Positions 209-54,719 are shown, counted from the first letter of the stretch. The stretch: DNA of 64,000 bases from Moniliella sp. 'wahieum' (GCA_003971905.1 RSEE01000003.1:124001-188000), one strand, 5' to 3'. The notes: a model not told the origin generated them from the letters alone. Program-made: numbers and translations.

Positions 209-1050
209 ATGTCTGCGCCAGATCCCACGAATGATCCCCTCACCTCTGTTAGAACCGATACGGGCGAGAGAGGAGAACGACGCGCATCAGGACGAGCCGG
301 TCATCTAGCGGTCATCTAGCGGCCATCTAGTATAGCTCAAAAAGCAGGTGGAGACCAAGATGTTTGAGGAGGATGAGAATGTTGTGTTCAAGATGTAAGT
401 GTCGCCCTGTCCATGCTGGCTCGCAGGCCTGACAATGACGAACCAATCCCCTTCCTGCCATCCTCCATTCACAGGCATCACAGCTGCGCTATAAATTAAA
501 CTATTTCGTTTCGACTCTGAGGGCAAGCAGTGGAAAGAGCGTGGGACAGGCGACGTACTAACGCCTGCTTCAGTACAGGCAACCCAGCAACAGCCGTGTT
601 GTGATGCGTGGTGTCAAGAGCCTTCAACTCGCAAACCGCTACAGTACCATACCATGTTTTGTTGCGTTTAAAGTACGCGGGGCGTTTTGCTGACCCGCAT
701 TCTCCCCACTCCCGATATTGCGCGCTCAAACCCGATGTCTCTTCGGACCGTTGGTGGGTGTACAATGCGGCGGCCGTCGTGTATGGTGGTGAACCACAGT
801 CCGTGAGGCCGGCGATCCGCTTTGCCAATACGAAAAGTAGGTGATTCCGATCACGGTTTATGAGCTGTACTGTGACCTTTCCCCCCAATCAGATGCTCAA
901 GGGTTCCAGACGGTATTCAAACAGATTCAGAAAGGGGAAAGCTCTAGTCATTGAGAAGAAGAGTAAGTAGGTGCCTCAGGAAGAGGCCAAGGGCGATGAG
1001 GAGGAGGCTAAGGAGCCAAGCGAAAGGAGGCAAAGTCGACGGGATCGCAT
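209..1050 (+). pseudogene. YRB1: Degenerate Ran-binding protein 1 (Yrb1/RanBP1) gene relic with introns
   Basis: Manual translation gives EPVI*...KQVETKMFEEDENVVFKM, a GTAAGT donor (~385), KLFRFDSEGKQWKERGTGDV, LKPDVSSDRWWVYNAAA...AIRFAN and an acidic tail, i.e. RanBD motifs in order. There is an in-frame TAG within an 11-bp triplication (299-331) and substitutions at usually conserved positions. The 3' end is approximate. Confidence 0.75.
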
Positions 1051-1752
1051 ACGTATTTCGTCCCCCCGTTTGCTCAGTCCTCCTCTCACGCCTACTTTCA
1101 TACGACGTGTTAACGCCCTGCGTTTGTTATTAATGTGATGGTGGAGAACTCGTTGGCTAGAAGGAATGGGGGAGACCGTCGATCCGTGATGCTGACCGTG
1201 CTTGCAACAGCGCTACTATATATGCGGAAGGAGGTGCAGTATAGTATGGGGGAGAGCGAGAGTTGCTCAGTATACTGTGAAGTAAGAACGGTTGCTCCTC
1301 GGGCTAGCGGCAAAAGGGGATGAGAAGGAACGTATGAAAAGATGCACAAAGCGACGGAAAGCAGTGGTGGGTTGAAACGTGGGCTTGAAACGAAAAGCTG
1401 CAAGTGCAAAGTGGGAACGAGTCGTGTCGGGGCCTATCCATGTCTTGAGAAGAGGTCTAATAGGAACGAAATGGCTCTGCAGATTGAAGCTATAACCATC
1501 AATTCAGTGTCTAAAGGGGTTTAATGAGTCACCATAACAAAGGCTAAAAAATAACAGGTAAGAGACCGAATGAGGCAAAGAACGGACAGACAGGAAACGA
1601 TAGAGCATATACATAGCGTAGACGGGGAGATGCGAAAAGCAAAGACGATGAGAAGGTATGCAAGAGATTAAAAGAAGAGAGAGACGAGAGGCAAGGGGAG
1701 CAGCCCTGGGCGGGGGCTAAGAAGACGTATAGTAGTAAGAAAGAGAACCCCC

Positions 1753-3899
1753 TTACTCGACCGTCACACTCTTGGCTAGGTTGCGGGGGAAATCGACATT
1801 GACGCCAGCTGCGCAAGCGAGGTGGTAGGACAGCAGCTGCAGCGGCACAATCGACAGCAAGCCTTGCAGGCAATCCACCGTCGATGGCACCCGGATCGTC
1901 TTTGCCTCTTTTCCAATCTCCTCGTCGTTTTCGTTGCAGTGATGATCGGTTGGCCCTTGCGCGCCGTGACCTGCATCAAGGCCGAGTGCACTTGGGATAC
2001 AGCGGTCCTTGGTCATCAGCAGGATCACCGGCATCGACTCGTCAATCATGCTAGTGGACCGTGCTTGAGCTCCGGCCAAGATGCCCTCGGAATGCATGTA
2101 GCACACCTCTTTGATCTTGAGTGCGCCCTCAAGACACGTGGCGTACTGGTACCCACGTCCCATGATCAGCAGCGACGTTCTTTGGCCACGTCTGGTAGGC
2201 CATGACTTGCAGTTGCTTGTCCTGTTCCAGCACTCTGGATCTGGTTTGGCAGCTCGTGCAGGCCATCGATGATTGCCTTGCGCCGCTCCTGCTTGGATAC
2301 TCGGTCTTCCGACAACTGCACAGCCATCATGATCAGGGCAATGTACTGCGAAGTGTATGCTTTGGTTGAGGCTACACCAATTTCAGGACCGGCATTGATG
2401 TGCACACCACAGTGCGACTCACGCGAGATGCTGGACCAACAGTGTTGACCACTCCGACACAGAGGGCCCCCCTTCCAGCGAGTAGCGCATTGCCAAAATC
2501 GTGTCCGCCGTTCTCCCGACTGGGACACAAACACACACACGTCGTCCCGAAAGATGGGCGACTTGCGATCGAGAAAGTCCGAGGCCAGCTCCACCGATAC
2601 AGGGATCTCCGTTAGCTCTTCAAAGACGGACCGGGTCTAATGCAATCACAACGTTCGTCAGGACGCCATGCCAACCACGCAAACAGAAAATGCTGTGGGA
2701 ACCGCAGGGACTACCGCCAAACATGAGTGGGAAGGAGGTCCCACACGCCACAAACACAATGCGTCGGCACGGCGGATGGTGTTGAGGAACTGCGACAGGC
2801 CTCCCAGGGTGACTTGGCGCGTGTCAAAGTTGACGCGCCCCCGCATTGTGTTGACCACCGACTCGGGCTGCTCATAAATCTCCTTTTGCATAAGTGTTCA
2901 AACGGCCCTTCATAATCTCGGCCAGCTCCATCTCGAGCGTCTCAATGGAGCGCATAGATGAGATGGCATCGTTGCGACGAAGCGGTGAATGTGGAGCTGA
3001 CCATTGCCAATGTGGGCAATGTCGTCATCCTCGAGGGAGAACACGCTTGGTGTGTTCAATGATCGCGCTGGCGTCCGACGCAATGAATACTCGATCGGTT
3101 GGGGCAAGCCATCATCCGAGAGGAAACGAGCGACTCTGGGTACGCACATCCCCGGTTGCGGTACTTGTAGGCCGTTGCCCGACGGAGCCTGACTCATGCC
3201 CGAGCGCGAGTAGGCCCGGATTGGCCAGGTGTGAATCAGCATCATCCGTGCCAGTGCCAAGCTCTACTCGTCGACAAAATCCACCTTGAGCTTCTTCTCT
3301 GTCTTGACGCCAATCAGGAGAGGCGATCCACGGCGGGCGCAACCATCTCGCCGGGAAAGTGGGAGGATTTGAAGCGAAGGAGAAAGCACCCTCGAGCTCC
3401 TTGACGCTCTTGATGAGCGTAGTAAAGTCAGGTTTGTGCTTTTGGTTTTGGGCCTCGTTGAAGAGGTAGAGACACAGCTTGGCCACCGCCTCGGTGTCTG
3501 TCTCGGTTTCAAACAGGAACCCCTTCTTTTCCAGGACAACTTGAGCTCCTTGTTTGTGATGATACCGTTGTGGATAACAGTGAACTGGTTCTTGACGTCG
3601 GAACGATGCGGGTGACAGTTCATTGGAGGGCTGGCCGTGGGTGGCCCACGCGTATGAGCATGCCCATGTAGAGGTGAAGGTTTTGGTAAAGTCGATTGGA
3701 CTCTGGTCAATGTGCTTGCGCAGGGCAGCGACTTTACCAACCTGTTTAAAGATAAGCACCTCCTGCGGGCATCGCCATCGATGGCAATGCCGGCCGAGTC
3801 GTAGCGCGGTACTCGAGGCGAGCCAAACCATTGACGTTGTCAACAATCTGACTCCGAGCACGTCTGTCAAGTGGTTGACGTAGGCAAGATGCCACACAT
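1753..3899 (-). CDS. GFA1: Glutamine-fructose-6-phosphate aminotransferase (GFAT); frameshifted in assembly
   Basis: N-terminal MCGI (ATG 3899), [61 protein letters not shown]-terminal [14 protein letters not shown] spread over several frames. Confidence 0.97.
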
Positions 3900-53720: not shown

Positions 53721-53843
53721 GGATATAATGTACAGAAGGATATAATTTGCTGGATGATTGTGTTTTTCTTGGACCAACGGGTCTATGGTGACTGATGAGG
53801 TTGCGAATGTGGAAGGAGAGCGGTAACACCGCTAGAACATCGA

Positions 53844-54719
53844 TCAAACGCGAGGTGCGAGCTTTAAAATGACTGTGTCGATCCCGTGCCTCAAGGCATC
53901 TACAATCTGGGCAGTCAAGTCCAGAGGAGATGCAAGGCGATCGGTGTGCATCCCCGCCTCGAGCTCTGTCGGCACAATCCGCCCCTGACGGACGAGCATA
54001 CCATCGGTGATCAGAGGCAAGGCCATGTCGTCCGTCATCTTGGTTGAAGTCTATAGTATAAGCACACCTCCCGCCGAGGTGGATAAGATGTTTCCGTCTT
54101 CTACCACCGACCCCGTAGTAGCACTGGACGTCGTGTGACTGGGATTGATGTGCGCGCCTGCATATAGAGACCTACTGTAGCAGTGGCGACCAAGGTTTCA
54201 AGCATCGCTATACCTGCATGGAGGAGAGCAAGCGAAACAGCATTAACGGCGGCGGCCAATATAAAGCCGTCAGTTTCGGTGATGGAAACGTGGATGCTAT
54301 TACTAAATGACCGAACGGGAGTATAAGTGTCGCAGGACAAGAGGGGCAAAAACGCTCCCTCGTTCGCGATTGGCAAAAAGTTATTAAGTTGGCGATCGCC
54401 TTGGTCCGTTTTCGTCTTTCCGTCCCGGCCCAGGGTAGCAATCACGCAAACCACAGCTAAGACAGGTTAGAGTCGCGCCCCCGGGGGTTGATCTGGTAGC
54501 CGCATCTGCAACTTTTTGCCTCGTCCCTTTTTTATAGACAGTGGCACTGATAGTGGCCACGCCGTGGGATACACAGTAGCAGATCCTTATTAGGGCCTGG
54601 TATGTTGTGGCCCGGGCAGAGTGGGAGCCAACATGGAGCTGGAGCCCGCTGAGATCGATGCGCTTGCGCCCATCTGTCGGAGTTGGGCGGAGGAGAGAAG
54701 CTCGATACAGGACTGGCAT
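53844..54719 (-). pseudogene. RRP41: Divergent or decayed exosome RNase PH subunit Rrp41/Ski6-like gene
   Basis: IELLSSAQLR/DGRKRIDL, VSHGVATISATVY, IHVSITETDGFILAAAVNAVSLALLHAGIAM (~DGG..AAINA.TLAL.DAGIPM), LPLITDGMLVRQGRI..ELEAGMHTDRL. Lower GC, frameshifts and many non-conservative changes. A functional divergent paralog is not excluded. Confidence 0.65.

Follow-up and report, generated by a model that had tools for sequence, protein, structure and literature searches.

The stretch of DNA analyzed here, 64,000 nt from Moniliella sp. 'wahieum' (GCA_003971905.1 RSEE01000003.1:124001-188000) and called the window throughout, is a compact fungal gene array according to Pfam scans that covered 412 stop-to-stop open reading frames (ORFs) and pieces of it. 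Three tracts within this array (tracts 1, 2, and 3; coordinates in Table 1) had been proposed, from an earlier sequence-only reading, to be YRB1, a DEAH helicase, and RRP41 decaying in place among intact neighbors. YRB1 and RRP41 are essential in yeast. We find that part of this proposal stands: tract 1, a gene with a Ran-binding domain (RanBD), and tract 3, an RNase-PH locus, are abnormally divergent for their families, and lost or relaxed constraint is plausible for both, whereas no helicase is detectable in tract 2.

A divergent Ran-binding-domain gene and an RNase-PH locus

Tract 1 passed the Pfam cut-off for Ran_BP1 (PF00638; 27.4 bits against 23.2 bits) over profile positions 17-37 of 122 only, and a protein search with its read-through translation gave a single match, P0001, a mis-predicted 233-residue Logan protein that contains one clean fungal RanBD exon. 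Compared with a representative library, P0001 had 2237 hits at E<=0.001, and the best 150 of these 2237, with P0001 excluded, were used for a RanBD profile of 535 segments and 191 positions. The proteins behind the profile are mostly multi-domain and RanBP2-like; among the best 150 of the 2237 hits, mostly proteins with multiple RanBDs, there was no full-length fungal Yrb1. When 82 six-frame pieces of nucleotides 1-1500 were scored against this profile, five plus-strand pieces matched in order (Table 1), and the second of these is 95% identical to the fungal exon of P0001.

Tract 1 was also compared with the profile by a frameshift- and intron-aware profile-to-DNA alignment written for this analysis, with shuffled sequences as controls. 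Its score of 91.0 bits was reached by none of 100 shuffles (13.6±1.7 bits), and the opposite strand scored 21.3 bits. All of the domain (profile positions 22-148) aligns colinearly on the plus strand, with the five pieces in order at profile positions 22-40, 43-62, 64-91, 93-132, and 133-148, along a path that includes two shifts and three intron-sized gaps of 102, 65, and 56 nt, the first of which begins with GTAAGT. In the PDB, 21 of 21 matches are RanBD proteins, and the top single-domain match is yeast Yrb1 (E 2.2e-4); neither Yrb2 nor Nup2 is among these 21. The tract starts 208 nt from the edge of the window, and further 5' exons may lie beyond it. The colinear alignment with its gaps, its separation from the shuffles, and the uniformity of the PDB matches bear out the earlier identification of tract 1 as a RanBD gene, probably of the Yrb1 type, and support the retention of its introns. 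The gene resembles Yrb1/RanBP1 in having a single RanBD, an acidic EEDE lead-in, and the motifs KLFRFD-WKERGTGD and IRFAN; it differs in the loss of the CANH and D-SEGE motifs, in replacements at conserved columns, and in a frame that is broken as assembled.

The erosion of conserved amino acids that had been described for this gene can be put in formal terms. Its 91.0 bits amount to 43% of the RanBD family median of 212 bits per domain, where an aminotransferase in the same array reaches 500 of 685 bits. Among columns at least 80% conserved, 20 of the 29 that could be aligned are kept and 9 are replaced, with six more columns unaligned; this share falls below the 1st percentile of the family, whose members keep a median of 94% of conserved columns (1st percentile 71%, minimum 55%). 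Over the exon shared with P0001 (profile positions 40-94), the window scores 35.8 bits and the fungal control 95.0 bits, most of which are carried by the profile span of the third, strongly eroded piece. Along 495-642, P0001 shares almost all of the first 20 residues, whereas about half of the next 27 are replaced.

As assembled, the RanBD reading frame is interrupted even after splicing, although the interruptions may be assembly errors. An 11-nt unit present in three tandem copies lies inside the conserved lead-in 'EP(I/V)(V/I)-x-L' and brings in two in-frame TAG codons, so that frame 1 across it reads DEPVI*RSSSGHLV*LKKQVETKMFEEDE. In the frame of the second piece, a TAA at 492-494 directly precedes KLFRF, with ~7 nt that appear by eye to be extra. 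One extra base follows at 561, a second shift occurs near 720, and by eye no AG 3' splice site is found in the second intron between a branch-like CTGAC (~689-693) and the fourth piece. The triple repeat and the TAA insertion suggest lesions that are not typical of single-base noise. Simple codon log-odds scans were too weak to split genes from spacers, and a measure of frame contrast was used instead, which gives 0.22-0.72 for neighboring genes and 0.00±0.21 for random windows of tract 2 (95th percentile 0.34). The 154-codon homologous path of the RanBD gene has a guanine-plus-cytosine (GC) content of 0.59, 0.40, and 0.63 at codon positions 1, 2, and 3 and a frame contrast of 0.45; because this contrast is within the neighbor range and exceeds 0.34, it argues against long decay.

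Tract 3 is a fainter case. Its Pfam match to RNase_PH (PF01138) is below the cut-off (21.8 bits, E 2.7e-4, against 25.5 bits) and covers profile positions 100-129 of 130 only, a result unchanged when 13 minus-strand pieces were scanned at E<=10; RNase_PH_C gave no match in these pieces or in three read-through frames. One frame has PDB matches, nine of nine of which are Ski6/RRP41 (best E 0.0042, 19.3 bits, 45 residues against Ski6 124-167); the other two frames had none at E<=10, and a read-through protein search found 0 of 6583 candidates at E<=10. We scored 58 pieces of the tract against an Rrp41 profile of 26 ORFs and 258 positions, which is archaeal (25 Asgard and one Bathyarchaeota sequence) and without eukaryotic Rrp41 calibration, and the central patch alone was significant (21.9 bits, E 3e-7). 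Aligned over its whole length with frameshifts allowed, the locus scored 40.7 bits, above all of 100 shuffles (15.3±1.9 bits, maximum 22.6) and above the opposite (plus) strand at 14.0 bits, along a path with seven shifts and three gaps that draws about half of its score from the central patch and is unfit for residue-by-residue reading.

The codon-frame signal of tract 3 is strong at 54470-54245 (frame 2, +0.34 to +0.44) and at 54110-53975 (frame 1, +0.31 to +0.41) and weak in the 5' third, at 54700-54560; the frame contrasts of the middle and 3' parts of the gene are 0.55 and 0.61. A protein atlas assigned the middle ORF to RNase_PH with a score of 0.89, which we treat as a lead only, and returned no usable match for the 5' ORF. 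A by-eye reading of the Rrp41 5' end was rejected: its 112-codon ORF is uninformative, rival frames match at E ~1-3, and all frames are open.

From these alignments we take tract 3 to be a colinear, gene-like RNase-PH locus with one well-kept patch. The likeness to Rrp41/Ski6 lies in this patch, 'DG-x-AAxNAxSLALxxAGIxM', in the gene length, and in PDB matches that are all Rrp41; the difference lies in a family score below cut-off and in N-terminal motifs and an RNase_PH_C domain that were not detected. The earlier assignment to RRP41 is therefore borne out only as an Rrp41-like RNase-PH identity, through the patch of 43-45 residues and the weak colinear alignment of the whole gene, and not at the level of the Pfam cut-off or the C-terminal domain. 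The locus may be an eroding RRP41 or another, naturally divergent RNase-PH subunit; Mtr3 and Rrp46 are poorly conserved RNase-PH subunits.

Table 1. Features of the window, with the three tracts and their parts first and the remaining genes in array order; positions count from the first nucleotide of the window.
Feature	Coordinates	Strand	Evidence	Remarks
Tract 1, Yrb1/RanBP1-type RanBD gene	209..1050	plus		three intron-sized gaps; frame broken as assembled
11-nt unit, 3 tandem copies	298..330	plus	Tandem Repeats Finder: period 11, 3.0 copies, 95% matches, score 59	
RanBD piece 1	336..392	plus	profile 22-40, 11.9 bits	10/19 residues equal consensus; GTAAGT at 395 follows
RanBD piece 2, KLFRFDSEGKQWKERGTGD	495..554	plus	profile 44-63, 31.7 bits, E 4.5e-10	perfectly kept
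RanBD piece 3	562..642	plus	profile 64-86, 4.1 bits	strongly eroded; entered via +1 shift at 561
RanBD piece 4	708..829	plus	profile 96-134, 11.5 bits	moderately kept; internal +2 shift near 720
RanBD piece 5	886..933	plus	profile 131-149, 3.0 bits	weakly kept
Tract 2, low-GC, non-coding-like stretch	51776..53720			pyrimidine-rich on plus strand; no helicase or other protein homology found
Tract 3, Rrp41-like RNase-PH locus	53844..54719	minus		reading path frame 1 to 2 to 1; TAG at ~54050-54052; 5' third unrecognizable
RNase-PH patch, SIHVSITETDGFILAAAVNAVSLALLHAGIAMLETLVATATVG	54170..54298	minus		sole individually significant patch; 43-45 residues
GFA1 (SIS domains)		minus	Pfam	before ILV2
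ILV2	5024..6917	minus	Pfam; acetohydroxyacid synthase alignment	used to calibrate indel noise
FMO-like gene, GCN1, Bax-inhibitor gene		minus	Pfam	after ILV2
TPR/DnaJ gene		plus	Pfam	after Bax-inhibitor gene
R3H/RRM gene, NAC, JAB/MPN subunit, transketolase-like gene		minus	Pfam	
G-alpha subunit		plus	Pfam	after transketolase-like gene
BNA3-like class-I aminotransferase	42583..43908	minus	Pfam; profile	calibrates noise and lineage distance
Fe-S assembly gene		minus	Pfam	between BNA3-like gene and eIF5A
tRNA gene	48829-48920	minus	Rfam RF00005, 55.8 bits	sole RNA-family match in window
eIF5A	50531-51063	minus	Pfam	
Mitochondrial carrier	55724-56571	minus	Pfam	
RING-variant gene		plus	Pfam	after mitochondrial carrier
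SNase-domain gene, then RPB2-type polymerase subunit		minus	Pfam	array end

The low-GC tract between eIF5A and the RNase-PH locus

Tract 2 has a GC content of 0.485 in a window whose mean is 0.591, which places it at the 0.5th percentile of same-length windows, and it holds the lowest 2 kb of all. The description of all three tracts as visibly low in GC is accurate for tract 2 but not for tracts 1 and 3, whose values of 0.532 and 0.548 fall at the 8.3rd and 14.6th percentiles; GC is equally low inside stretches of the RPB2, G-alpha, and JAB genes. Hypermutation of the repeat-induced point mutation (RIP) type was considered as a cause of the low GC and rejected, the dinucleotide indices not being RIP-like. 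All six frames of tract 2 show flat codon-position GC (0.47-0.50) and contain 17-37 stops per 647-648 codons. Neither repeats nor transposon structure was found at 51-55 kb, nor any Rfam family in tract 2. Two short tandem repeats lie upstream of eIF5A toward this tract, at 51012-51044 and 51435-51469 (a 14-nt unit repeated 2.4 times at 100% identity and an 11-nt unit repeated 3.2 times).

Eight kinds of test gave no helicase signal in tract 2; these tests used bacterial, not fungal, helicases and weaken above ~30% substituted sites. The Pfam helicase families (core, HA2, and OB) matched none of the six read-through frames at E<=1, the NCBIfam models, which include full-length HrpA and HrpB, matched none of the six at E<=10, and the three minus-strand frames matched no helicase chain in the PDB. 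With E. coli HrpA and HrpB as queries, tblastn against the window found nothing significant (top match in tract 2, E 0.29). The eight DEAH motifs (I, Ia, Ib, II, III, IV, V, and VI) were also sought as a colinear chain, each in any frame, and the best chain scored 103 on the plus strand and 109 on the minus strand, where shuffles scored 101.3±7.3 and 105.9±7.6 and 415 and 346 of 1000 reached the observed values; as controls, intact hrpA scored 273 and hrpA with 20% of its sites substituted scored ~160.

One of four frameshift-aware tests with single sequences (HrpA and HrpB) gave a nominal signal: residues 61-172 of E. coli HrpA align to 52081-52782 on the plus strand with four intron-sized gaps (27.0 bits, 1 of 150 shuffles). 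This match is probably due to chance, as it was not reproduced with a family profile built from 13 bacterial helicases (11 from plasmid-collection records, together with HrpA and HrpB of E. coli; a further locus was dropped for want of an ORF), with which the plus strand scored 19.0 bits (6 of 100 shuffles) and the minus strand 15.0 bits (90 of 100). Helicases closer to the eukaryotic ones were sought through the family HA2_N, which was found in 0 of 121 Asgard genomes searched.

By eye, strings resembling 'GETGSGKT', 'DEAH', and 'SAT' can be picked out on the minus strand and strings resembling motifs I, Ia, and Ib on the plus strand. We reject these as pattern-seeking, given that the formal tests are at chance. 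That they occur on both strands shows how little readings of this kind can be trusted: in AT-richer spacer DNA, looking by eye for eroded motifs yields false gene relics. The claim that tract 2 is a decayed DEAH helicase thus finds no support in domain models, structures, motif chains, or the family profile. Tract 2 is not a demonstrable gene relic; in its properties it matches neutral, AT-richer DNA between genes. Any gene that once stood here is past recognition, and the tract may be a fully erased relic.

On the other side of the RNase-PH locus, the interval 54800-55700 leading to the mitochondrial carrier contains ORFs on both strands with only a weak coding signal on the plus strand, and it has no Pfam match.

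Neighboring genes, source lineage, and assembly noise

The neighboring genes provide two calibrations, of phylogenetic distance and of sequence noise. In the protein collection searched, the BNA3-like aminotransferase has 646 relatives at E<=1e-20, the closest of which is 64% identical; its named relatives, at no more than 58% identity, come from all basidiomycete subphyla and then from Mucoromycota. Judged by this protein, the source lineage is therefore basidiomycete, and the collection searched contains no sequenced relative close to it. A metagenome scan with the CTP1-like ORF found four loci, the top one 66% identical and on a 2.2-kb contig; a 63-kb contig from the same scan showed no synteny with the window.

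Frame breaks are common in genes that are otherwise well kept. Along the minus strand, the reading of ILV2 switches frame repeatedly inside conserved thiamine pyrophosphate (TPP)-enzyme domains that leave no space for an intron, and positions 60 and 61 of the Pfam TPP_enzyme_N profile abut on overlapping bases in two frames. In one frame ILV2 aligns to a fungal acetohydroxyacid synthase with 521.6 bits, its in-frame stretches near-identical, and the query is nonsense over residues 96-143 and ~425-495, where the target is conserved. The BNA3-like gene scores 500.1 bits against a profile of its 119 relatives (family median 685), with three frame shifts, all of the missing-base type, and 0 stops in 400 aligned codons. 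The N-terminal glutaminase domain of GFA1 was missed by Pfam in all three frames; the minus-strand reading of this half of the gene (2900-4000) flips frame every few dozen codons, with 'MCGI', 'HNGIITN', and 'ETDTE' falling in alternating frames. Single-base error density is locally higher at 2900-4000 than in the rest of the window.

Overall, the neighbors carry ~1 single-base, deletion-type shift per 300-450 coding nt, locally more, and neither substitutions nor stops come with these shifts. Such a pattern is what consensus errors in long-read assemblies leave behind, and the assembly was probably built from unpolished long reads. The earlier description of the neighbors, as having indel noise but near-perfect motifs, proves right for ILV2, GFA1, and the BNA3-like gene, though in ILV2 the motif RHEQ reads RRED. 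Since the neighbors are frameshifted at a similar density, no decay can be read from frameshifts in the three tracts, and in so noisy an assembly a gene missed by Pfam need not be eroded. Gene-fragmenting indel errors are described for long-read assemblies in two earlier reports (PMC12007338, PMC9262707). The single-base shifts that break ILV2, GFA1, and the BNA3-like gene, most of them deletions and many at short homopolymers, in otherwise near-perfect protein sequence, are of that kind. They leave unexplained the low GC of tract 2, the triple 11-nt repeat, and the many conserved-residue substitutions of tracts 1 and 3. Because single-base errors break conserved genes throughout this assembly, pseudogene calls made from it require read-level confirmation.

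Two further observations concern ILV2. In the alignment to the fungal acetohydroxyacid synthase, the change from RHEQ to RRED lies at 6675-6690 (minus strand), beside the catalytic glutamate, and GGAILPVFDAIY reads as another string of 12 residues; these are odd replacements in an otherwise well-kept neighbor. To our knowledge, RHEQ is invariant across the acetohydroxyacid synthase family.

Relaxed copies, divergent genes, or older decay

The reading that we favor, to which we give slightly under an even chance, is that tracts 1 and 3 are young unprocessed pseudogenes or redundant, relaxed copies and that tract 2 is no demonstrable relic, all seen through a noisy assembly of an isolated lineage. 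Both are gene loci in their own slots, with conserved-position replacements far in excess of those in the neighbors. They were probably released fairly recently from purifying selection, and the RanBD and RNase-PH copies would have drifted where they lie, pushed by AT-biased mutation that would also lower third-position GC. The combination of excess replacements, lowered third-position GC, and a retained codon structure with few stops fits recent release better than old relics. The homologies, the excess divergence, the kept codon structure, the noise in the neighbors, and the lack of helicase signal are observed, whereas we infer the loss of function, its recency, and that functional copies exist elsewhere. 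Of the two loci, the RanBD gene makes the clearer case: its multi-base, stop-bearing insertions tip the balance toward a non-functional copy, and one of its introns has no usable 3' splice site as assembled.

So read, the loci are a further example of in-place pseudogenes that are already known. Unprocessed 'gene relics' of this kind are described in yeasts, for example in a hemiascomycete survey (PMC2876123). Compared with such relics, the loci here are alike in gene-sized slots, intact neighbors, retained introns, weakened colinear homology, stop-bearing insertions, and lowered third-position GC; they are unlike in that their inactivation is putative, as assembly errors mimic frameshifts here, the codon periodicity is gene-like, and the functional paralogue is putative.

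Several points weigh against the favored reading. On the side of method, the RanBD profile derives mostly from RanBP2-like multi-domain proteins with one fungal control exon only, the Rrp41 profile is archaeal and without a eukaryotic control, and the 5' third of tract 3 is ambiguous, with three frames open and two overlapping frames giving rival weak matches. On the side of the sequence, tracts 1 and 3 are no more densely broken in frame than some neighbors, such as GFA1, whose N-terminal domain escapes Pfam; several of the RanBD lesions could each be one assembly error; and even ILV2, an 'intact' neighbor, has the RRED replacement. The 20 of 29 conserved columns kept by the RanBD gene exceed the family minimum of 55%, and a functional, divergent RanBD may account for them. 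Finally, patchy divergence, with 20 perfect residues beside 27 half-changed ones, is not what uniform neutral decay predicts; gene conversion from a functional copy might have produced the patchiness.

The most serious alternative, which we consider unlikely, is that tracts 1 and 3 are functional, single-copy, fast-evolving genes, the latter perhaps Mtr3-like or Rrp46-like, with their lesions assembly errors and tract 2 an ordinary spacer. It is credible because the assembly noise is dense and the lineage isolated, as the identity of 64% at best for a neighboring enzyme, and of no more than 58% to named basidiomycetes, illustrates. Codon periodicity and frame contrast in the two tracts match the neighbors in strength, frame-break density is comparable with that of ILV2, GFA1, and the BNA3-like gene, and the RanBD gene, with a conserved-column score inside the family range, retains EEDE, KLFRF, WKERGTGD, WV, and IRFAN. 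In Rrp41-like subunits, the patch seen in tract 3 is the best-kept part. However, few eukaryotic proteins are as conserved as RanBP1, yet MRRDKTLKVCANH has become MRGVKSLQLANR here and the acidic D-SEGE loop has become VVYGGE, both of which the fungal exon keeps. The 11-nt triple repeat with its TAG codons exceeds single-base noise, the second RanBD intron has no AG 3' splice site by eye, and the other neighbors are not fast-evolving. All nine PDB matches of tract 3 are to Rrp41/Ski6 and none to Mtr3 or Rrp46, chains that we take to be present in the same PDB entries.

It is improbable that the region records staggered decay of a block of redundant copies of normally essential genes, after an old duplication or hybridization or within a sheltered non-recombining region, in a deep-branching basidiomycete lineage that lacks sequenced relatives; tract 2 would then be the oldest loss (erased), the Rrp41-like locus intermediate, and the Yrb1-like gene the youngest, its kept 20-residue patch a trace of gene conversion. 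We regard as even less probable the full scenario of the sequence-only reading, in which YRB1, RRP41, and a DHX35-type helicase underwent staggered decay, tract 2 earliest, with intact copies elsewhere following duplication or hybridization, or in a sheltered region. The gene-sized slots with a graded signal (91 bits for the RanBD, 41 bits for the RNase-PH locus, and none for tract 2), the neutral-like composition of tract 2, and the one nominal HrpA signal would all be in keeping with this scenario. Yet the HrpA signal was lost with the 13-sequence profile, the motif chains were at chance on both strands, domain and structure searches found no helicase in any frame they covered, and only 2 or 3 of ~25 genes are affected, the neighbors not being relic-like. 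Long staggered neutral decay is a poor fit in particular to tracts 1 and 3, which keep codon periodicity and mostly open homologous frames; these same features leave room for functional fast-evolving genes or for a naturally divergent RNase-PH subunit. Very improbable is that the tracts are locally bad consensus over normal genes (from low coverage, failed polishing, or collapsed haplotypes): the assembly is demonstrably rich in consensus errors, but those in the neighbors delete single bases and substitute none (0 stops across 400 aligned codons), the tracts differ chiefly by substitutions while their frames stay colinear over 27-40 residues, and consensus errors cannot drop GC from ~0.59 to 0.485 across 2 kb.

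If the RanBD and Rrp41-like loci are truly dead, the organism no longer has the syntenic copies of two yeast-essential genes. Working copies would then have to exist elsewhere, along with a duplication, a hybrid origin, or a sheltered region that has gone undetected in this poorly sampled lineage of basidiomycetes. If both loci are functional, two very conserved proteins are present here in unusually divergent versions.

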